Below, piece by piece: positions 2,255 to 17,310 of a stretch of DNA of 64,000 nt. Both the position numbers and the translations under genes were made by a program. The stretch is from an uncultured Planctomycetales bacterium (GTDB lineage: Bacteria > Omnitrophota > Gorgyraeia > Aquiviventales > Aquiviventaceae). The notes beneath the pieces are model-generated. The model had not been told where the DNA came from. It saw only the letters and a list, made by a program, of their open reading frames with translations, and made no database searches. The stretch spans positions 41,654-105,653 of the forward strand of contig CAYJTP010000001.1 of the NCBI GenBank assembly GCA_964373175.1, written 5' to 3'. Every line of letters begins with the position of its first letter. Position 1 is the stretch's first letter.

Positions 2255-3322
2255 CTACCTCAACCCCAGCAGGCTTCGCAGCGACGCCTGGTGGTGGGTG
2301 GCCCATACCAGTGGCCCTGTCAGCTTCAGACGCATGAGCACATTGAGCATGACGAAGATGCCATGTTGGACAAACCCAGTTCGGGAGGCTTCGAGTTGTT
2401 GAAGCACCTGCTGAAACTCTTCGGCGCTGAGACGGTAATCCAGAATTTCAAAGAGCGTCTGAGCAGCAGGCCGTTTCGATGCCCTCGAGTCCTGGTTTCT
2501 ACAGTAGAGGGCCAGCTCGTAGGCAAGCGCCCAAAACAGATAGCGATTGACCGAGGACCTCCATCGACTGACCATCTGAGCGTGGGCCGGCCAGCGCGTC
2601 ACGTGGGCATCGCAATAGCGAGAGAGGCACTCCTCATAATCACGGGCCATCGACACGATGGTCCGTGCGCTTTGTGACTGACGAAGCTGCCGACAGCGCC
2701 AGAGCAGCCTGTCCACATGGCCGATCTGCCAGCGTTCGGCAATCTGGAACCACACGACAAAGTCTCCGAACCCGATGGGTCCTTGCTCATCAAACCGAAT
2801 GTCACCGAGAGCCGTGCGCCGGATCATGGCACCCGGAATGCCGATAGAGGATCGTCCAGAGCGCATTGTGCGCTCAATGTACTCCAACCCCGGTGTGACG
2901 GACGGGACGTCGCACTCCCTGACGCCAAGGCACTCCCCCGCGTCGCTGATCAACTCCCAGTCGGAGCACACCACCCCCACCTCGGGATGGTGAGAGAGAA
3001 ACGAGACGTACTCGCTGACGAGTCGAAGACTCCGCTCATCATGGTCGTGGAAGAAACAGATGAACTCCCCATGGCTTTCGTCGATGCAGAAATTATGATT
3101 GCGGTAGAGACCCTGATTGTGAGGATGGCGCACATATCGGATACGCGAATCCGCTAACGCCGCCTGACGGCAGACAGCCTCTGTCTCATCTGCTGAACCA
3201 TTATCACTGATCAGGATCTCGAGCGGAGCGTAGTCCTGGCCTTGGATACTCCTGAGGCCCTCGCGCAGTGCAGAGGCCCGATTGTATGTCGGCACACAGA
3301 TTGAGACGAGGGGCTCGCTCAT
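2255..3322 (-). CDS. glycosyltransferase family 2
   Basis: 355 aa. VSICVPTYNRASALREGLRSIQGQDY...ILISDNGSADET is the classic GT2 (GT-A) N-terminal signature with a DxD-like region. Confidence 0.8.
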   Translation of the reverse strand: MSEPLVSICVPTYNRASALREGLRSIQGQDYAPLEILISDNGSADETEAVCRQAALADSRIRYVRHPHNQGLYRNHNFCIDESHGEFICFFHDHDERSLRLVSEYVSFLSHHPEVGVVCSDWELISDAGECLGVRECDVPSVTPGLEYIERTMRSGRSSIGIPGAMIRRTALGDIRFDEQGPIGFGDFVVWFQIAERWQIGHVDRLLWRCRQLRQSQSARTIVSMARDYEECLSRYCDAHVTRWPAHAQMVSRWRSSVNRYLFWALAYELALYCRNQDSRASKRPAAQTLFEILDYRLSAEEFQQVLQQLEASRTGFVQHGIFVMLNVLMRLKLTGPLVWATHHQASLRSLLGLR

Positions 3323-4187: not shown

Positions 4188-5396
4188 CTATCCATGGAGC
4201 ATCTCTCGGTAGAGCGCCAAGTACTTCTCAACCCCTTTTTCCAGATCGAAATACCTCTCGGCGACCCGCCGGCAGCGACGCCGCAGCTCTTCTCCTTCTT
4301 GAAGCAGTTGACGTAACTGAGACACGGCCAAACGGTAGGAATCGTGGGACAGGGTCCGAACGACCACCCCTACCCTCTCTCGCTCGATGAGCGTGTCGCA
4401 GTCGCCCACCCCTGCGGTGATCACAATGGGGACGCCACAGGCCAACGACTCTCCCACCTTGGTAGGGCAGGCAGCACGTGCGGAGCTGACAGGCTTCACG
4501 AGACACAAGCTGGCTCTTGCATGCCGGAGTGCCCCAGGGACCTCCTCATGGGGCAGGGAGTGGATTCGATACAATCGGGGATCAACGGGAAACCGCTTCT
4601 GATCTATCCGCCCATCGGTACTATAGGTGAGGAGTTCCCACTCTGCATCCGGAATCTGCTCCTGGACCAGGGAGAAAAAGGAGGACATCGCGTCAAGCGC
4701 ATACCACCCCTCCAACGACCCGATATGCACGAGTTTAAAGCCCTTCCCGTTGTTCTGGGAAAGATCCTCAGCCAGGGTAAATCGATTCAGATTGACACAG
4801 GTGGGGATCGCCACCGTGGGAACCTGGATGCCCCGTTCTGCTAACCGAGCATCGAGGATGTTCTTTCCGGCTTCGGAGAGGATCACGATCCCATCTGCGG
4901 CCTGAAAGAAGCGGCGTTCGCACCACTTCGTTGTCCGATAGAGCATCCCGTTTGTCTTCCACAGTCCTCCTTCAACCCGTTGCTCCGGCCAAAATCCCCG
5001 GAGATCAAACAGAAAGCGCGCCCGAGTCAGGTGTGTGACCCACAAGGCGAGCAGGGCCACCACATAGCCCCTGGCGTGAACAATGTCAGGTCGCCATCGG
5101 CTGCAAATCTTCCTCGTTGCCACAAGTCCCTGAAGCAGATCCCACACCGTTGACATCACGGGGGGTCGCTTGTGGTAGCGAAGGGGCAGCCAATGAATCC
5201 GTTGACTCCTGAGATGGCGGCGACATCTCGAGAGGTCATCGTCAGAGAGGGTCGTCTTTTCAAAGCTGACGACGAATAGCTTGATGCCTCCTCGGGCGAA
5301 CCGCTCCAGGTACGGAACAACCTGAGAACGGCCCAACGGATCGAGCAACCCATCGTATGAAAGGTAGAGACAGCGAACTCCAACGGTCCTGTCCAT
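4188..5396 (-). CDS. glycosyltransferase family 4 (GT-B, retaining)
   Basis: The track ORF (4188..5753) has a low-complexity N-terminal extension. Internal Met MDRTVGVRCLYLSYDGLLDPLGRSQVVPYLE (residue 120, coordinate 5396) coincides with the stop of the upstream gene. The C-terminal half has the GT4 E-x7-E-like region (PTKVGESLACGVPIV). Confidence 0.8.
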   Translation of the reverse strand: MDRTVGVRCLYLSYDGLLDPLGRSQVVPYLERFARGGIKLFVVSFEKTTLSDDDLSRCRRHLRSQRIHWLPLRYHKRPPVMSTVWDLLQGLVATRKICSRWRPDIVHARGYVVALLALWVTHLTRARFLFDLRGFWPEQRVEGGLWKTNGMLYRTTKWCERRFFQAADGIVILSEAGKNILDARLAERGIQVPTVAIPTCVNLNRFTLAEDLSQNNGKGFKLVHIGSLEGWYALDAMSSFFSLVQEQIPDAEWELLTYSTDGRIDQKRFPVDPRLYRIHSLPHEEVPGALRHARASLCLVKPVSSARAACPTKVGESLACGVPIVITAGVGDCDTLIERERVGVVVRTLSHDSYRLAVSQLRQLLQEGEELRRRCRRVAERYFDLEKGVEKYLALYREMLHG

Positions 5397-6853
5397 CAGA
5401 CAGCCTCTCGGGACGGTTCTCGCTGAAGCCCTAAGGCTGTCAGGAAAAGGAGGAGTGGCCACACGGACGCCCGGTGTCGAAAGAGCGTCCCGATGTTTCC
5501 CTCCAGTAGGGCCATTGCACTGCAAAACACGAGAATGATGGTCAGGATCAACTGTTGCCCTGGAGACCCCAAGATCGCCCTGGTAGCTCCTCGGAAGGCG
5601 AAGAACAGGAGTGGATACCAGAGGAGCATTTCCAGGGATCCGAGAAGCTCTGTCGAGGAGCGCGCCATCCACGGAGCGGGCAGGGTGAGCACTCCCACCA
5701 GACCAATCGGCAAGAACATGACCACCTTCACCATCGTATCCAAGCGAACCCATTCAAAAAACGGGGTGCGGGCATCGAGCATCCGGACCCTTCTTGAGTA
5801 TTCGATCCATCCTGCGAGCTTGTTCGGCTCAAGAGCCTGTTCCACGATTGCCCGCTGAAAGACCATCGTGTCCACATCTCGACACAACCGTAATAATGGA
5901 CCAGGAACCTTTCCGGAAGAGATCGAGTAACACGTGAATACCGCTGCCGCGAGGAACACTACCCTCAGCATTCTGATATGAACAACCCCATACAACACGC
6001 AATAGATGAGAAGCGCAGCCAGAAACAACGAACCGATGAAGGGATTGACCTTGGCCAGTACCCATGTCACCCCAAGTCCCGCAGCCCAGGTGATCCCGCG
6101 TCCTCGCCGGAATGGGAAAAGGAAAAGAGCCAGGGCCGTCAGCAGCAACGTGAACGACATCGGTTCTTTGAGATTCTGTGTCGACCAAAGAAAAAGGGAA
6201 GGCCAAAAAGCCGTCAGGAGTCCTGCCGCTCGGGCGGCGCGTTCCCGTAGGTACAGTCGGGCAATCCAGTAGGCCAAGATCCCCGCCCATGAGCCAAAGA
6301 GGCAATTCACGCCGAAGAAGGTCAGGGGGTGATAGCCAAGCCAGTAGGCGACAAGCCCGTTCCAGTAATCAAAGGCCACCCCCGCCGCACCGGACAAGCT
6401 CACAGAACCGAGTGCCTCGGGAGTGGGAAATTCACCCCGCTTCCAATGCTCTGCTAGCCAATAGCCGTTGGCGGCATAGCCGTAACCATCTGCAACGAAA
6501 AAGCCCCCGTTCTGGAACATGCCCATCGGTGTCTCGTACCAGATCCTCGGGCAAACACCATACAAGAGCAGGGCGACGATCACCCTCGTCAACAGCGCGG
6601 TCAGGAAGAGTCGTCGCACCCACTTGCTTTGAACAGGCTCGAGTCGCTGAAGCAACACGAGGGAACACAGCGTCCCTGCCCCTAACGCCACCCAGCCCAT
6701 CCTCAGTGGGGAAGGACTGATCGCCACCAGACACCCCAACAGGCTTAAGCCCAGAAGCCGAACCCCCCCTCGGTGCCGACGCGCAAACGCCAACACCTGG
6801 CTATTCCCCCACTGGCAGCGGAAGAAGCCACCCCCCAGCAGGATGCTACTCAT
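5396..6853 (-). CDS. polytopic inner-membrane protein, O-antigen polymerase/ligase-like or GT-C-like (function uncertain)
   Basis: About 486 aa, highly hydrophobic with at least 10 predicted helices, W/Y/G-rich loops and a large loop (GYGYAANGYWLAEHWKRGE...). The first codon of the track ORF is TTG at 6868; an ATG (MSSILLGGG) at 6853 is preferred. Confidence 0.45.
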   Translation of the reverse strand: MSSILLGGGFFRCQWGNSQVLAFARRHRGGVRLLGLSLLGCLVAISPSPLRMGWVALGAGTLCSLVLLQRLEPVQSKWVRRLFLTALLTRVIVALLLYGVCPRIWYETPMGMFQNGGFFVADGYGYAANGYWLAEHWKRGEFPTPEALGSVSLSGAAGVAFDYWNGLVAYWLGYHPLTFFGVNCLFGSWAGILAYWIARLYLRERAARAAGLLTAFWPSLFLWSTQNLKEPMSFTLLLTALALFLFPFRRGRGITWAAGLGVTWVLAKVNPFIGSLFLAALLIYCVLYGVVHIRMLRVVFLAAAVFTCYSISSGKVPGPLLRLCRDVDTMVFQRAIVEQALEPNKLAGWIEYSRRVRMLDARTPFFEWVRLDTMVKVVMFLPIGLVGVLTLPAPWMARSSTELLGSLEMLLWYPLLFFAFRGATRAILGSPGQQLILTIILVFCSAMALLEGNIGTLFRHRASVWPLLLFLTALGLQREPSREAV

Positions 6854-8480
6854 CGGTTTTCTGGGCAACCCCTTCTTCGATTTCGACCACGGTTCCTTGA
6901 AGCGTATATCGAGAAGAGATGAGGGTCAGTAGGTCTCCGATCCGGATCGCCTCTTTGTCTATCTGCAACTCTGCTGTCACCTGTAATCGATGGAGATCCA
7001 CCCTCCGAACGAGGTAAGGATCGCCGGATCTCTGAACCAACCGATAGACTTCTGCTGGCCCGAGGTCTGTTACCCTCGCAATCCTGCCGATCACCTGGCC
7101 TCCCCCGAACAACAGGTCGTCCGCCTTAACAGCCTTTGCTAGCGGCTCAGGGATTTCCTCCGCAACCAGTTGGACCACCTCCTTCCTCGGCACAGTTGCA
7201 GTTTGCTGTGGCGGGGTTTCGCGGATCTCCAGGACAACCACGTCCAAATCGTACTCATCGCTCCGAAGGGACAATGAACTCCCCACCTTCAGGGGCTCTC
7301 CACTGAAGAAAAGCCAAGTCCCCTTGGAGAAGCAGTGCAGCTTCACCCAGAGTTGTATGGTTGAGCTGGTGGGGCGTACCTGGAGAAACCGCTCGGGATT
7401 CACCTCGATGTCGACGCTGGGCAAAAATGGCACGGGGGGAACGAGGAGAAACTGGACCACCTCACCAACAGGGACCATCCTGGCATCGTAGATCGGATCG
7501 TTGGGAGTGATGAGATTGAGGGCGTCGGGCTCGAACTCAGGTATGCGCACCCGGATGTACCTCCAGGCCGGCTCCGGGGCTACGACCACCGTTTCCGCTG
7601 GCGGGGTTTCGCGGATCTCCAGGATGTCGCCGGAGAAGTCATAGCGCAGACTGCGGAGCATCAGGGAAGCCCCGACCTTGAGGAGCTTGTCGTCGAAAAT
7701 AACATGACCACCGCGCTCCCACCCCACGAGCCTCACCCAAAGCTCCACCTGCGGAACCGAAACCGTGAGGGGAAGTTGGAAAAAGCCCTTTTGCTCAAGG
7801 GGAATCCATGACAGCCGTGGATTCGCGACAGAGATTTTCCCATCGATGACCTGACCGACAACCTCCCCCCGGTGATCATAAATCGCATCGCCTCGGTTAA
7901 AAAAGCCTGCCAAGTCCATGGAGGCAATGTTTCCACGAAGCAGAACAAATGCCTCCCTCGGCAAACCGGGGCGGACCGTCCCGGAGAGACCGTATTGCGC
8001 CGACCGGAAGTCAATCGAGGAACCATTCGTGACAGGTCGCCCCTGGAAGTAAAATTTGCCGTCATCACGAGAGAGCTGCCCATGGAGCCGCAACCGGGTC
8101 ACGACCCGCTTTAAAGGCTTACCCGGCACGATCGGAATGTACTGGATAGAGCTGAAGTCGGCGAGTGCCGTCGACGGCTGAGGCGCAAAGGCCTCCAGGA
8201 TCTCTGCCAGAACCCTCCCTGTGGAATCGTGGTACACATCTCCAACTTGAATCTTGGAACTCACCGTGTCCTCCACCCGATCAAAGACACACGCCACTTC
8301 GATTGCGTCGCTGAGCTCCCATGGTCCACCAGGGTGCTGTGGGGCAGTTAAGATGCGATAGCTTGAAATGGCCACAACCCCCCCGGCAATGAGCAGTCCC
8401 GAGAGCACCAGATCAGCAAGGTTGATTATTCCAAAGAGTCTCCCCTGGTCATCAAGCAGACGTCTCATCGCAACCCTCAA
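6846..8480 (-). CDS. membrane-anchored protein of unknown function with four internal ~130-aa repeats
   Basis: 544 aa. N-terminal TM helix (IINLADLVLSGLLIAGGVVAISSY), then repeated segments such as VELWVRLVGWERGGHVIFDDKLLKVGASLMLRSLRYDFSGDILEIRETPP and IQLWVKLHCFSKGTWLFFSGEPLKVGSSLSLRSDEYDLDVVVLEIRETPP. A near-identical ~34-nt DNA repeat is spaced 390 bp apart. Confidence 0.55.
   Translation of the reverse strand: MRVAMRRLLDDQGRLFGIINLADLVLSGLLIAGGVVAISSYRILTAPQHPGGPWELSDAIEVACVFDRVEDTVSSKIQVGDVYHDSTGRVLAEILEAFAPQPSTALADFSSIQYIPIVPGKPLKRVVTRLRLHGQLSRDDGKFYFQGRPVTNGSSIDFRSAQYGLSGTVRPGLPREAFVLLRGNIASMDLAGFFNRGDAIYDHRGEVVGQVIDGKISVANPRLSWIPLEQKGFFQLPLTVSVPQVELWVRLVGWERGGHVIFDDKLLKVGASLMLRSLRYDFSGDILEIRETPPAETVVVAPEPAWRYIRVRIPEFEPDALNLITPNDPIYDARMVPVGEVVQFLLVPPVPFLPSVDIEVNPERFLQVRPTSSTIQLWVKLHCFSKGTWLFFSGEPLKVGSSLSLRSDEYDLDVVVLEIRETPPQQTATVPRKEVVQLVAEEIPEPLAKAVKADDLLFGGGQVIGRIARVTDLGPAEVYRLVQRSGDPYLVRRVDLHRLQVTAELQIDKEAIRIGDLLTLISSRYTLQGTVVEIEEGVAQKTDE
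7201..7234. repeat. direct repeat copy 1 (intragenic, domain duplication)
   Basis: gtttgctgtggcggggtttcgcggatctccagga recurs near-identically 390 bp downstream at 7591-7624. Confidence 0.6.
7591..7624. repeat. direct repeat copy 2 (intragenic, domain duplication)
   Basis: gtttccgctggcggggtttcgcggatctccagga. The 390 bp spacing equals 130 codons, matching the protein-level repeat. Confidence 0.6.
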
Positions 8481-12639: not shown

Positions 12640-14082
12640 CTATTTGCCTGCAAAACGTAAGTACATGAAATCACACATCTGCTGGAACCACAGGGTTCCA
12701 TTCCAGTGAGGATTCGTGTGCTGCGTAGCCAGAAAGTCAGCGAGCTTGAACGCAAGGAGCACATTGTCGTCCATGCTGTTATTGAGGAACAGGCCATGTC
12801 TCCCGACACTGAGGAAACTGTCCAACCGGTGGAGGACCTCTAGCACCGGAAACAAATTGTCCTCAAAGTGCATGTCATACACAGGGTAGACGTATTCCAC
12901 CCGACGCGTGAAAAATCCCTCAATAATCGAGAGGTCCTCAATCAGGTTGGCCCGACGCACATCCGCCAATACAATCTCGTACAGCTCTCGCTCCGAGGCC
13001 TCCCACACGGCATCGCCCTTGGTACAGGTCAACTCAAAGAGCAGCACCGTCTTGCCGTCGGGCAGCATCTCCTTGCTGACATTTTTCTGCTCGGAGATCC
13101 GGTTACAGCGGTAGAACTCATCCAGGAGGTAACACCAGTGATAATCGGTAATTCTCTCTCGGTTGAGAACAAGGTAACAAAATCGAAGACTCCGATACCT
13201 AAGACGGCTGGCCAGCTGTTGGACTTCTTGGTCAAGCGGTGGATCAAACAACCGAACGATCAACGGCAAGGGTAGTGTCGAGATGACGCCGCTACACTCT
13301 ACATTTCGTTCCTTGCCTTGAATGGAAGCGCAGACCCCCTCAATCCGATTCCCGCTCCGAACGATCCGGTGAACGGGAGCCTGAAGGTGTATCTGACCGC
13401 CGGACGCCAGAATGCTTTGCGCCATTCGCTCGTACAGCAGGCCGATCCCGCCACGGGGATACAGATACTTGTTAAAATAGACCACCGGATCTACCTTGAT
13501 CCCGAAGGTACGTAGGAGAAGTTCTGTGAGGTTGAGTTTTGCTACGCGCTGCGCCTGGCACGAGGAAATCTGACAGGTCGGCAGACCCCACACCCGCTGC
13601 GAATATATGCCGAAGCAAAGGTCGTAAAGCGTGCGACCTAAATTCTTGACGCCCCATTCCTCAAAGGAAGAGTCCTTGGTCGGCGGTTGAACCCGCAGGG
13701 TTGCATTGGCCCTCAGATAGTCCCAAAGGATCCGTATCGCTAACCAAGGTTGAATACCGGTTAACAACTCCGTGATCTTGAGGGGGTAGGTAAAGTACTT
13801 CTTTCCAAGCAGGATACGCGCGCCGCGCTTGAGTATCCTTGGGTTCTCCCCAAAAAACGGCATCAGCTCACGGATAATACGGTGGCTTTCTTCCGTCCCC
13901 CGGAGATGAAAGGTGTGTGGTCCATAATCGAGCCGGTACCCATTGACCGTGATCGTCTTCCCTAACCCGCCCACCGAGTCATCCTTGTCAAAGACCACGA
14001 CCTCCTTCCCGAGCTGAGACAAGCGCCACGCCGTGGTGAGACCAGCCGGTCCCGCTCCTAGAATCGCGATGGGTTTCCTCAG
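12640..14082 (-). CDS. FAD/NAD(P)-binding oxidoreductase (amine-oxidase / UDP-galactopyranose-mutase superfamily); start codon uncertain
   Basis: The reading frame stays open upstream of the first canonical start (TTG at 14022) and encodes RKPIAILGAGPAGLTTAWRL, a GxGxxG dinucleotide-binding fold. An in-frame TGA lies at 14119-14121. No ATG/GTG/TTG occurs between that stop and the Rossmann motif; candidates are CTG at 14082 (GAGGAG 7 nt upstream) or ATC/ATT. Confidence 0.65.
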   Translation of the reverse strand: MRKPIAILGAGPAGLTTAWRLSQLGKEVVVFDKDDSVGGLGKTITVNGYRLDYGPHTFHLRGTEESHRIIRELMPFFGENPRILKRGARILLGKKYFTYPLKITELLTGIQPWLAIRILWDYLRANATLRVQPPTKDSSFEEWGVKNLGRTLYDLCFGIYSQRVWGLPTCQISSCQAQRVAKLNLTELLLRTFGIKVDPVVYFNKYLYPRGGIGLLYERMAQSILASGGQIHLQAPVHRIVRSGNRIEGVCASIQGKERNVECSGVISTLPLPLIVRLFDPPLDQEVQQLASRLRYRSLRFCYLVLNRERITDYHWCYLLDEFYRCNRISEQKNVSKEMLPDGKTVLLFELTCTKGDAVWEASERELYEIVLADVRRANLIEDLSIIEGFFTRRVEYVYPVYDMHFEDNLFPVLEVLHRLDSFLSVGRHGLFLNNSMDDNVLLAFKLADFLATQHTNPHWNGTLWFQQMCDFMYLRFAGK

Positions 14083-14101
14083 TTCTTCTCTCCTCGTCTC
14101 G

Positions 14102-15262
14102 CTACCAGCCCTGCCGAATCACCTGAACGATAAACTTGGCCTCTTCCGGTGTCACCCACGACCCACAAGGGATGGAAATGTAGTGGCTGGTGAAAGCATC
14201 GACGCCGGGCAACACGGTACGAAATTTCCGAAACACCTCGTACTGATCGTTGCGAACGTGCACAACCGAGGTCGCGATTCCATCCTTGCGCAGGTGCTGC
14301 ACAAAGGCCTCTCGATCGTCGACAAGCATGGTGAAGATCCAAAAGGCTGATGTGCCGTCCTGCAGCCGTTTGAGATGGCGCAGTTTCGGCAGCCCCTGCA
14401 GATGTTCCAAGTAGACGGACGCGTTTCTTCGATGCGCGCTCAGGATCTGATCGATGTACTTGAGCTGTTCAATGCCAATGGCAGCGGCGACGTTGTTCAT
14501 GTGAAACTTATATCCGTACTCCTCGACGTTGTAGTCCCAGAACAGCTCCTGTCGCCGCGCATCCCGGTCGATCCCGAACCACCGCAATTTCTTCCCACGC
14601 ACATAGTCCTTCTCCTCCCGACAGAACACGGCTCCTCCGTCGATCGTGGTGATGTGCTTGATCGCCTGGAATGAGAAGCAGACAAAGTCCGAGTGCGTGC
14701 CGATCTTCGCTCCCTTGTACTGGGCGCCAAACGCATGAGCCGCATCTTCAATCACCTTGAGCCCGGAGGACCGGGCGAGCGCATTGATCTCGTCAATGGT
14801 GGCTGGATCGCCCGCCCAATGCACATAGAGGATCGCCTTGGTCTTCTTGGTGATGTTGCGTTCAATTGAACGGATGTCGATGTTCCCTGTGTCCGGGTCG
14901 ATATCCGCCCAACGAATGGTTCCGCCTGCTGCCAGCACGGGCGAGTTTGTGGCCACACACGTCATGGGAGAAGAGATCACCTCATCCCCAGGACCTACTC
15001 CTGCCAGCCGCAGCGATAGTTGAATGGCGCTGGTGCCCGAGTTGAGCGCTAAGACATACGGATTCCCAATGTAGGCGGCAAGCTGGTGCTCGAATTCTCG
15101 AACTTGCTCGCCCTCGGTGACATAGCCGCTAAAGAGCACTTGGGTCAGTGGTGCGAGAACGCCCTCGGGCATGAAGACCTTGAAGAGCGGAATGGGGGAC
15201 CTCGTTTCAGGAGGCGGCTTCTGCGCGTCGATGGCGAGATGGGCGTGAGCGCGGTTCGTCAT
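14102..15262 (-). CDS. DegT/DnrJ/EryC1/StrS-family PLP-dependent sugar aminotransferase
   Basis: IPLFKVFMPEGV..., EFEHQLAAYIGNPYVLALNSGTSAIQLSL, and the PLP-lysine region FSFQAIKHITT. Start set at the ATG overlapping the upstream TGA (TGATG); the track ORF starts 16 codons earlier. Confidence 0.85.
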   Translation of the reverse strand: MTNRAHAHLAIDAQKPPPETRSPIPLFKVFMPEGVLAPLTQVLFSGYVTEGEQVREFEHQLAAYIGNPYVLALNSGTSAIQLSLRLAGVGPGDEVISSPMTCVATNSPVLAAGGTIRWADIDPDTGNIDIRSIERNITKKTKAILYVHWAGDPATIDEINALARSSGLKVIEDAAHAFGAQYKGAKIGTHSDFVCFSFQAIKHITTIDGGAVFCREEKDYVRGKKLRWFGIDRDARRQELFWDYNVEEYGYKFHMNNVAAAIGIEQLKYIDQILSAHRRNASVYLEHLQGLPKLRHLKRLQDGTSAFWIFTMLVDDREAFVQHLRKDGIATSVVHVRNDQYEVFRKFRTVLPGVDAFTSHYISIPCGSWVTPEEAKFIVQVIRQGW

Positions 15263-15927
15263 CAGGGAGTCCTCCGCTTTTCCAAGACCATCACGTAATA
15301 CATGTTCCACCAGAACGAGAGCTTGCGAAACGGTAGTGGGTAGGCCTCGACCACGTTAAAATCTGCCGCCAAGCGGTGCATGAGGCGTGGTGTAGTGAAG
15401 GTCACATGATCGGGATAGCGGGGCGGCCATTTCAGCAGGAGCATCCGTCCCAACGTCATAGTCAGATCATTCGGCACAAGGAGCATCACCCGCCCCCCAG
15501 CTTTCAACACTCGATGCGCCTCGTTCAGGACCACATCGGGCCTCTGGACATGTTCCAGCACCGCGATGAGCAGGACCACATCGACAGAGTTACCCTGAAA
15601 GGGCATCGCGTAGAGGTCGGCGCAGATCACCTTGCCGTGAGGGTTCTCAAACTTTTTCAGCCGTGTCCAGGAGACATCGAGTTGAATCGGGCGGATGTCG
15701 CTCCCTCGGAAGAAGAACCCTTCGCCGCATGCGCCTTCCACAATGATCTCCGCTGGGAACTGTCTGAGATGGTGCATGGTCTCGCGGACACAGAGACGGT
15801 AGAACCATCCGACAACACCTACGCATTGCTGATCATGGCCGTGAGCCTGAGCCACTTCTTCGTGGAGCAGGCGCTCCTGGAGCTGTTCCGCTGACTCCGA
15901 CGCGACTAAAGATGTGTTCACGCTCAT
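15262..15927 (-). CDS. class I SAM-dependent methyltransferase (Methyltransf_11-like)
   Basis: Start at MSVNTSL (ATGA overlap with upstream stop). VVLLIAVLEHVQRPDVVLNEAHRVLKAGGRVML is a typical motif II/III region. Confidence 0.75.
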   Translation of the reverse strand: MSVNTSLVASESAEQLQERLLHEEVAQAHGHDQQCVGVVGWFYRLCVRETMHHLRQFPAEIIVEGACGEGFFFRGSDIRPIQLDVSWTRLKKFENPHGKVICADLYAMPFQGNSVDVVLLIAVLEHVQRPDVVLNEAHRVLKAGGRVMLLVPNDLTMTLGRMLLLKWPPRYPDHVTFTTPRLMHRLAADFNVVEAYPLPFRKLSFWWNMYYVMVLEKRRTP

Positions 15928-16124
15928 GACATGAATTCGTAAAAATGGTTCTCGTGCATCTGGAAGGCGTCGAACAGGTCCCTGCCACACTGCTGCGTGG
16001 CGCCCATCCCGCCCACGAACGGTGCACGCTCCAGGATGACGACGGCCTGCTCCCCTTCAAGCAAATCGCGGGCCGCCGCCAGGCCGCAGGAACCCGCCCC
16101 CCGGATGACCACAGGCTTATTCAT
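15924..16124 (-). pseudogene. 66-aa N-terminal fragment of an FAD-dependent oxidoreductase (probable gene remnant)
   Basis: MNKPVVIRGAGSCGLAAARDLLEGEQAVVILERAPFVGGMGATQQ has a GxGxxG fold and a 'VGG' motif like CDS 12640..14082, but terminates after 66 aa. It overlaps the next genes at both ends. Confidence 0.4.
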
Positions 16125-17310
16125 GGCTGTCAAACCCCTTGCCGGCCCGCAGATAGACAGACAGTCCCGTTCGCCATCGCGTTCGGTGCTGGCTATGGAC
16201 CTGCCGGTAAAGAGCTCCCAGTCGGCGAGCGGTCTCATCCGCATGAAAGTGCTCACGCACCCTCGCTCGACCCGCCTGGCCCAAGGCCTCACATCGAGAG
16301 GGGTCCTTCAACAGCGTGGCAATGGCCTGAGCCAACGCCTGTGCAGAGCCCGGCTCTGTTAAGAGACCCGTGACACCATCTGCAATGACTTCCGGCATGG
16401 GGCCGAGTCGAAACGCCACGCAAGGTTTTCCCGCTGCCATCGCCTCCAACAGCACGAGTGGCAGCCCTTCGCTCAGAGACGGAAAGATGAACAGATCACT
16501 AAGGGCTAGCAGTTCCGGGATATCGCGACGAGTCCCAAGAAATCGGACGTGGGTTTGAAGACCCAGCGCCTCGGTTTGGCGTTCTAATTCCTGGCGGCAG
16601 CATCCGTTCCCAACGATGAGCCAATACAGCTTGGACAGACTCCCCTGGAGAAGGGTGAGCGTCTGAAGGACGAACCGGTGCCCTTTGGGCGGATCCAGCC
16701 TGCCGATGGTGATCAAGATCTTCGACCCCTCCGGAAGGCAGAGCTCTTCCTTCAGCCGACGGACCCGCTCCGAGCCGACGGTCTCAAACAGTTGCGGATC
16801 GATCGCGTTCGGAATCACAGAGCAACGCTCCTCAGGAATCCGAAACCGCCGAACCACGGATTGCTTCACAAAGTCGGAGACCGCCACAAAGTGGGCTACG
16901 CAGGTCCGAGCGGTCAGACGATCGATCCATTCCCGTTTCCCTGAACGTAGGTAAGGATCCGGGCTTTCGTACGCCGAACCCTGGACTGTCGAAATGACTG
17001 GGATTCCCATCGCCCTTGCGACAACGCGGCCATAGCAGTCGGCGCCAAACAACTGGGTGTGCATCGCATCAGGTCGGATCTGACGAATAAGATTACGGAG
17101 TCTCGGAATCGCGTTGACATCCAACAATCCGCGAAGCCCCAACCCGATGACTGGAATGCCATTCTTGAGAAACAGGTCGGCCATCGAGGTATCGGAAAAC
17201 AGATGCACTACCGTGTGGCAACAGTCGTGGTTCAATCGGACAACGTCATTCAAGAGGCGCCGTTCGGCACCACCGATCCCGAGGCTGTCGATCAGGTGGA
17301 GGATCCGCAT
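16117..17310 (-). CDS. glycosyltransferase family 4 (GT-B)
   Basis: Start at MRILHLIDSLGIGGAERR (ATGA overlap with upstream stop). C-terminal FIFPSLSEGLPLVLLEAMAAGKPCVA is the GT4 signature. The track ORF has a 90-aa low-complexity extension. Confidence 0.8.
   Translation of the reverse strand: MRILHLIDSLGIGGAERRLLNDVVRLNHDCCHTVVHLFSDTSMADLFLKNGIPVIGLGLRGLLDVNAIPRLRNLIRQIRPDAMHTQLFGADCYGRVVARAMGIPVISTVQGSAYESPDPYLRSGKREWIDRLTARTCVAHFVAVSDFVKQSVVRRFRIPEERCSVIPNAIDPQLFETVGSERVRRLKEELCLPEGSKILITIGRLDPPKGHRFVLQTLTLLQGSLSKLYWLIVGNGCCRQELERQTEALGLQTHVRFLGTRRDIPELLALSDLFIFPSLSEGLPLVLLEAMAAGKPCVAFRLGPMPEVIADGVTGLLTEPGSAQALAQAIATLLKDPSRCEALGQAGRARVREHFHADETARRLGALYRQVHSQHRTRWRTGLSVYLRAGKGFDSHE

Follow-up and report, generated by a model that had tools for sequence, protein, structure and literature searches.

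The 64,000-nt stretch of contig CAYJTP010000001.1 analysed here (the window, whose positions serve as coordinates throughout) carries on its minus strand a gene for a flavin adenine dinucleotide (FAD)-dependent oxidoreductase whose dinucleotide-binding GxGxxG motif is encoded ahead of any ATG, GTG or TTG. Judging from the sequence, we propose that 12640-14082 is an intact functional gene that is translated from a CTG codon into a 480-residue enzyme, and we put the probability of this reading at about 0.62. Translation of the full Rossmann domain from a non-canonical codon of some kind is likely and is the firmer part of the proposal, while for the identity of that codon the evidence leans towards CTG 14082-14080. 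The near-cognate start thus appears to be a genuine and conserved feature of a functional gene, with CTG most probably the codon in use. Initiation at CTG is of a known but rare kind, and as a consequence of it gene-finding software truncates the protein: the product on public record (NCBI, Logan) is 452 aa long and begins at GTG 13998. Since this record lacks the FAD-binding core, modelling or expressing the 452-aa form would be predicted to give a dead enzyme. The main value of the analysis is therefore a corrected gene model, in which the 480-residue CTG form is the one to use.

A start region devoid of canonical start codons

The elements of the region are as follows.
12640-14082, minus strand: full coding sequence proposed for the flavoenzyme, an FAD-dependent and UDP-galactopyranose-mutase-like oxidoreductase, with CTG start, 480 codons and TAG 12642-12640 (translation)
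14119-14121, minus strand: in-frame TGA, the upstream bound of the open reading frame (ORF) (direct reading)
14102-14104, minus strand: TAG stop of the DegT/PseC-like aminotransferase gene (14102-15262), 19 nt 5' of the CTG
14095-14097, minus strand: ACG, alternative near-cognate codon and possible site of an ancestral ATG, 4 nt past the aminotransferase stop (junction alignment)
14090-14095, minus strand: GAGGAG, Shine-Dalgarno (SD)-like, with a 7-nt spacer (AGAAGAA) to the CTG
14080-14082, minus strand: CTG, the likeliest initiation codon, 8 codons ahead of the first Gly of GxGxxG
14062-14070, minus strand: ATC 14070-14068 and ATT 14064-14062, lesser near-cognate alternatives (direct reading)
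14041-14058, minus strand: GAGPAG codons, the dinucleotide-binding GxGxxG loop, residues 9-14 (translation and alignment)
14020-14022, minus strand: TTG (residue 21, within the first helix), first of the canonical start codons (ORF listing)
13996-14007, minus strand: AAGGAGG, then 2 nt, then GTG 13998 (residue 29), the start used by public gene calls (direct reading)

After the TGA the frame reads FGRAGSETRREE, CTG (L), RKPIAILGAGPAGLTTAWR, TTG (L), SQLGKEVVVFDKDD and onwards to TAG 12642-12640, with 13 sense codons between TGA and CTG. Direct reading of the minus strand from 14118 to 14023 found no ATG, GTG or TTG in this frame and likewise none in the other two. TTG 14022, at which the program-made ORF listing opens the flavoenzyme ORF, is the first in-frame canonical codon and lies 12 codons past the first Gly of the motif, so that no canonical start stands between the upstream stop and the indispensable residues of strand 1 and GxGxxG. 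An earlier note on this DNA had claimed that GxGxxG is encoded 5' of the first ATG, GTG or TTG, which the minus-strand reading (motif 14058-14041, TTG 14022) bears out, and it had placed the TGA, the CTG and the GAGGAG 7 nt upstream of it correctly. Its list of plausible initiators, CTG and ATC or ATT, holds in so far as ATC and ATT are the sole other in-frame ATN codons, but overlooked ACG 14097-14095. The aminotransferase stop 19 nt ahead of the CTG did not appear in that note.

Two general explanations were considered for the start-less extension and set aside. With 27 of 52 long ORFs ending in it, TGA is the window's commonest stop, and another in-frame stop follows 10 codons further up, on which grounds a reading of UGA as sense codon was rejected. 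A general relaxation of start choice in the window is unsupported as well: among 70 minus-strand ORFs of at least 150 codons, judged by eye on their translations without a homology search for each ORF, the flavoenzyme ORF is the only one with a start-less upstream extension that bears a recognisable conserved motif.

The same junction was recovered from independent assemblies. The exact 386-aa aminotransferase product is also recorded from other assemblies. It led to a Logan assembly of run ERR4904390 (L084), whose junction matches that of the window without a difference, CTG and GAGGAG included. The sister strain on contig L001, which stems from another project (SRR22388040), has a gene of 97.9% identity with 30 differences inside it, and keeps the GACGAGGAGAGAAGAACTGAGGAAACC stretch, the CTG and the GAGGAG as in the window; from GACGAGG through CTG to AAACC, 27 nt show no change. 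Two substitutions just upstream (TAG CGA to TCG TGA; window 14101-14104, L001 4506-4509) shift the aminotransferase stop by one codon, and the gap between stop and CTG is 19 nt in the window and 16 nt in L001. In all, three assemblies, which derive from three sequencing runs and no fewer than two projects, agree base for base over CTG and SD sequence. A scan of JGI metagenomes for close relatives gave nothing closer than 64% identity, and a scan of GTDB species representatives, which do not include the window's own genome, nothing closer than 74-76%, so that this CTG lineage is represented by the window, L084 and L001 only.

A comparison with the start regions of orthologs, as proposed in the earlier note, places the CTG where these have ATG, GTG or TTG. 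Our start survey covered 76 distinct orthologous loci, and in 72 of them a canonical start (ATG in 42, GTG in 22, TTG in 8) lies 6-25 codons, most often 9-10, ahead of the first Gly; for the window CTG the distance is 8. Orthologs that start at the downstream TTG and lack the motif had been named as the observation that would overturn the claim, but none of the 76 loci is without GxGxxG and no ortholog starts past it. The nearest orthologs (72-74% identity, covering 99-100% of the 480-residue protein) have DegT directly upstream and, in the junction alignment, an ATG 5-6 nt past the DegT stop, which gives 11-12 residues ahead of the first Gly.

A second locus of the family, not related to that of the window, may share the feature independently. 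In L028, from an Acidobacteriota metagenome-assembled genome (MAG; MFD04944.bin.1.4, about 2989-3016), the ninth codon ahead of the first Gly is CTG, with no canonical start within reach; its sister loci carry TTG (L073) and GTG (L023) at that position. If this CTG is not a base error, a near-cognate CTG arose twice in about 76 family loci. Two further loci from long-read Acidobacteriota MAGs are irregular in other ways. The ortholog in L081 (about 2940-3013) is in frame with an upstream methyltransferase ORF and has no nearby start, and that in L082 matches in segments only; both oddities are probably due to indel errors or gene fusions.

Choice of the initiation codon and selection on the upstream codons

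Of all candidate codons CTG shows the strongest calculated pairing with the anti-SD sequence, with -8.4 kcal/mol (about the top 7% of window positions) compared to -6.2 for ACG, -5.6 for ATC and ATT and -3.9 for TTG, although the energy scan over all ORFs is noisy in G+C-rich DNA and allows a rough ranking only. The 7-nt distance of GAGGAG falls into the SD spacing of about 5-9 nt (PMC2268962), and other likely true starts in the window have GGAG or GAGG motifs 5-9 nt upstream. The initiation region is less stably folded than 187 of 200 shuffled sequences and should for this reason be accessible.

The alternative that survives best, which we nevertheless regard as unlikely, is translation of the full Rossmann domain from another near-cognate codon, either ACG 14097-14095, ATC 14070 or ATT 14064. 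In E. coli, ACG, AUC and AUU act as initiators at CUG-like levels. The ACG is located where orthologs have their ATG, 4 nt after the DegT stop compared to 5-6 nt, could be taken up by re-initiating ribosomes, and would give 13 residues before the first Gly compared to 11-12 in the nearest orthologs. However, it overlaps the SD sequence, its own upstream pairing is weak (-6.2 kcal/mol), and the codons AGG AGA GAA GAA follow. Since AGG (10%) and AGA (4.6%) are the rarest Arg codons in the window and GAA is the minor Glu codon, this stretch resembles a ribosome-binding site and not coding sequence. For ATC, a GAGG (14080-14077) sits 6 nt upstream, but with a start at ATC or ATT only 4 or 2 residues, respectively, would precede the first Gly, while no ortholog has fewer than 6, and the ATT is replaced by ATC in L001. 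We thus favour CTG over the other near-cognate codons.

Purifying selection extends to the codons that only a non-canonical start would include. Between the window and L001 the 480 codons differ by 20.5 synonymous and 9.5 non-synonymous changes, a ratio of non-synonymous to synonymous rates (dN/dS) of 0.14 (binomial p = 7e-7 for the surplus of synonymous changes), and the frame is uninterrupted in both strains, with neither frameshifts nor stops. The 20 codons from CTG to just before TTG contain three differences, all of them synonymous (CCC/CCA, ATT/ATC, GCT/GCG; p ~0.03), and retain every family-invariant residue encoded there (G9, G11, P12, G14 and W19, in an alignment of 34 family sequences). 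Because both strains already carry the CTG, purifying selection was maintained without a canonical start, which is the pattern of a real codon kept under such selection, here on the basis of only two strains. In the AlphaFold2 model (predicted local distance difference test score 86.9 overall and 90-94 across the first 20 residues), strand 1 comprises residues 5-8, the glycine loop residues 9-14 and the first helix residues 12-23. According to this model, a product from TTG (residue 21) would be without strand 1, glycine loop and most of the first helix, and a product from GTG 13998 (residue 29) would additionally lose part of strand 2.

These data leave little room for a young pseudogene that has lost its start, or for a gene that yields only a truncated, FAD-less product from TTG 14022 or GTG 13998, which we consider improbable. 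It is true that gene callers pick GTG 13998 with AAGGAGG just upstream of it, that CUG is inefficient as an initiator (10.1101/063800), and that a probably decayed 66-aa paralog remnant only 2 kb off points to gene decay within the same cluster. A decaying gene would be expected to show a dN/dS near 1, frameshifts or internal stops, but the ratio of 0.14 has accumulated since the split of two strains that both bear the CTG, all 480 codons have stayed open in each, the codons ahead of TTG change only synonymously, and a start at residue 21 or 29 would remove strand 1, glycine loop and first helix from the modelled fold. The AAGGAGG is accounted for by the coding sequence of a conserved K-E-V-V in strand 2, and its 2-nt spacer to the GTG is too short. 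The GTG 13998 start is thus probably spurious, and the AAGGAGG at 13996-14007 probably misleads gene callers that rely on ribosome-binding sites.

A supply of the Rossmann part from elsewhere is very improbable, be it by fusion with the aminotransferase through a programmed +1 frameshift near the TAG, or in trans from the 66-aa ORF at 16124-15924. The aminotransferase frame is one base behind that of the flavoenzyme, which is accordingly +1 relative to DegT, and only 13 sense codons lie between TGA and CTG. However, direct reading found no slippery sequence in CGG CAG GGC TGG TAG C and no possibility of re-pairing at TGG TAG C or the adjacent codons. Moreover, the best 120 homologs are all 452-501 residues long with no fusion among them, and the orthologs are separate genes with a stop and an ATG. 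The 66-aa ORF does possess an ATG, and its product corresponds to the family from strand 1 through GxGxxG and the first helix to strand 2, but its family similarity ends after about residue 47-63. Nor does trans supply fit the sister strain L001, which shares the CTG arrangement but carries a methyltransferase gene instead of the fragment.

The earlier note had left the choice between a rare non-canonical start, which now gains indirect support from the sequence comparisons, and a sequencing or assembly error that hides an ATG or masks a canonical start by an indel. All that speaks for the latter is that CTG starts are rare a priori (of 61,358 reconstructed AUG starts, 2 had switched to CUG; Belinky, Rogozin and Koonin 2017, PMC5622118). 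It is effectively excluded by three concordant assemblies, one of which represents a distinct strain that differs at 30 other positions of the gene, and by the lack of a homopolymer run near the CTG.

Several points weigh against translation from the CTG. CUG is a poor initiator that supports 1-2% of AUG initiation in E. coli (10.1101/063800), and the 19-nt gap to the aminotransferase stop exceeds that of classical tightly coupled gene pairs. The feature is common to only two strains with a dS of ~0.06, so that the time under selection with CTG was short, and the N-terminal signal consists of three substitutions. As the two strains do not differ anywhere between ACG and CTG, their comparison does not discriminate between these two codons. 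Finally, the CTG of L028 comes from a long-read MAG, in which a base error is possible.

Protein family and gene neighbourhood

The protein scores above the Pfam gathering thresholds for Amino_oxidase (3e-25, 89.8 bits, cut-off 19.8) and NAD_binding_8 (1.9e-18, 66.9 bits, cut-off 21.9) and, with its N-terminal GxGxxG, falls into the flavin amine-oxidase / UDP-galactopyranose-mutase-like superfamily. Its best NCBIfam matches, nearly end to end, are the PRK07208-type families NF005548 (4e-90) and NF005547 (3e-83). Since its scores stay under the curated cut-offs of these models (302.7 bits compared to 389 for the equivalog NF005548, PRK07208.1-4), it belongs to a related subfamily and is not an equivalog. 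The PRK07208-type FAD oxidoreductases, which NCBIfam labels 'hypothetical protein', share the Amino_oxidase and NAD_binding_8 architecture with the flavoenzyme. The UDP-galactopyranose mutase equivalog TIGR00031 is likewise missed by far (45.4 bits, cut-off 303.75). The closest solved structures are eukaryote-type UDP-galactopyranose mutases (E = 4e-14 over residues 4-400; template modelling (TM) score 0.79), followed by fold by protoporphyrinogen oxidase (TM 0.75). These mutases (PDB 4dsg from Trypanosoma cruzi, 3ute and 3ukh from Aspergillus fumigatus) have an N-terminal GxGxxG FAD domain like the flavoenzyme, but are only 18-20% identical to it. It is a reasonable guess that the flavoenzyme modifies sugar nucleotides, possibly as a pyranose-furanose mutase.

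The gene lies just downstream of the DegT-type aminotransferase gene and belongs to a glycan-synthesis cluster that spans at least 60 kb and keeps almost wholly to the minus strand. Among the products of this cluster are glycosyltransferases, methyltransferases, NeuB-type synthases, cytidylyltransferases, a GNAT acetyltransferase, an ArnT/PMT-like transferase, an asparagine synthase, a Kdo transferase and UDP-glucose dehydrogenases. For a housekeeping-like gene of the window, every one of the closest named relatives belongs to Candidatus Omnitrophota, which makes the source probably a member of that phylum. The 66-aa ORF (minus strand; MNKPVVIRGAGSCGLAAARDLLEGEQAVVILERAPFVGGMGAT and following residues), whose ATG overlaps the stop of the preceding GT4 glycosyltransferase gene, represents a further member of the flavoenzyme family by its N-terminal Rossmann part only, cut short after about 50-60 residues. 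It shares 40-50% identity with the N-termini of orthologs and probably stems from the decay of a paralog. Where the window has ~220 nt with this Rossmann fragment (15955-16175), L001 has a gene for a 305-aa methyltransferase (1690-2650). L001 2544-2613 matches window 16109-16178 at 88.6% identity, a possible junction duplication. Nucleotide identity between window and L001 falls to 65-75% further downstream, at window 5139-8344, and is ~95% on the other side. As these sequences indicate, the glycan cluster is mosaic between the two strains.

Proposed mechanism and comparison with known systems

We propose that initiator fMet-tRNA reads the CTG, on which it has a first-position mismatch, and that the protein would begin fMet-Arg-Lys-Pro-Ile-Ala-Ile-Leu-Gly-Ala-Gly. 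The weak codon may be made workable by the GAGGAG at an optimal spacing of 7 nt, which would raise ribosome occupancy there, and an unstructured, purine-rich initiation region may aid its use. Ribosomes that have just terminated at the aminotransferase TAG 19 nt upstream probably feed the CTG by translational coupling. In E. coli, re-initiation is boosted by an SD sequence and favoured by a short intercistronic distance; it declines with this distance and reaches background at 40 nt (PMC2268962). Raised IF3 represses initiation at non-canonical codons (PMC2268962). Since DegT lies upstream in the orthologs too, with gaps of 5-6 nt, the coupling is probably ancestral. As AUA, AUC, AUU and CUG form a group of initiators with 1-2% efficiency in E. 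coli (10.1101/063800), the output expected by analogy would be low, ~1-2% of that of an AUG start, and the flavoenzyme would be made in a low, fixed proportion to the aminotransferase.

Both genes most likely share one transcript. Between 13800 and 14500, a scan for transcription signals turned up no terminator and only two weak matches that resemble promoters, and an Rfam scan of the entire window gave no match, hence no riboswitch or known leader at the junction. Upstream, the methyltransferase stop and the aminotransferase start overlap by one base as TGATG (15260-15264, minus strand), and many further gene pairs of the minus-strand cluster overlap or abut. Such pairs fit one long, translationally coupled operon.

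Regarding the history of the start, an ancestral ATG a few bases past the upstream stop, as in the nearest orthologs, would have been lost in the CTG lineage, possibly by a change from ATG to ACG at 14097-14095. Initiation may then have shifted to, or stayed at, the CTG behind the ribosome-binding site. One could go further and regard the CTG not as a tolerated defect but as a selected low-output signal that is sensitive to initiation-factor stringency, sets the dose of the flavoenzyme relative to the aminotransferase and arises repeatedly in the family. We consider this extension distinctly doubtful on the present comparisons; if true, CUG-initiated genes would be systematically hidden in uncultivated bacteria through truncation by gene callers.

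The flavoenzyme gene is a comparatively well-supported natural case of a bacterial gene under selection without ATG, GTG or TTG, from an uncultivated lineage in a phylum without genetics. In well-curated genomes, CTG, ATT, ATC and ATA starts are annotated at very low frequency, and the possible second case in L028 suggests that such starts are under-counted. Among known systems, infC and pcnB of E. coli start at AUU. Like other near-cognate-initiated bacterial genes, the flavoenzyme gene has one near-cognate codon, an SD sequence at normal spacing and low expected expression, and the codons for its essential N-terminal residues come before the first canonical start. In contrast to infC, there is no sign of an autoregulatory logic. 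The flavoenzyme start also differs from the infC and pcnB type in that it is probably fed by ribosomes terminating 19 nt upstream, and in that it is proposed from sequence. A further parallel is provided by evolutionary start-codon switches, in which non-AUG starts accompany stronger or more conserved SD sequences (PMC5622118). As in these switches, a canonical start has been replaced in a single lineage and a strong SD sequence stands beside the weaker codon. However, here the whole junction appears remodelled and not one base, and in contrast to the rarity of AUG-to-CUG switches in that study, the flavoenzyme family may hold a second CTG case in L028.

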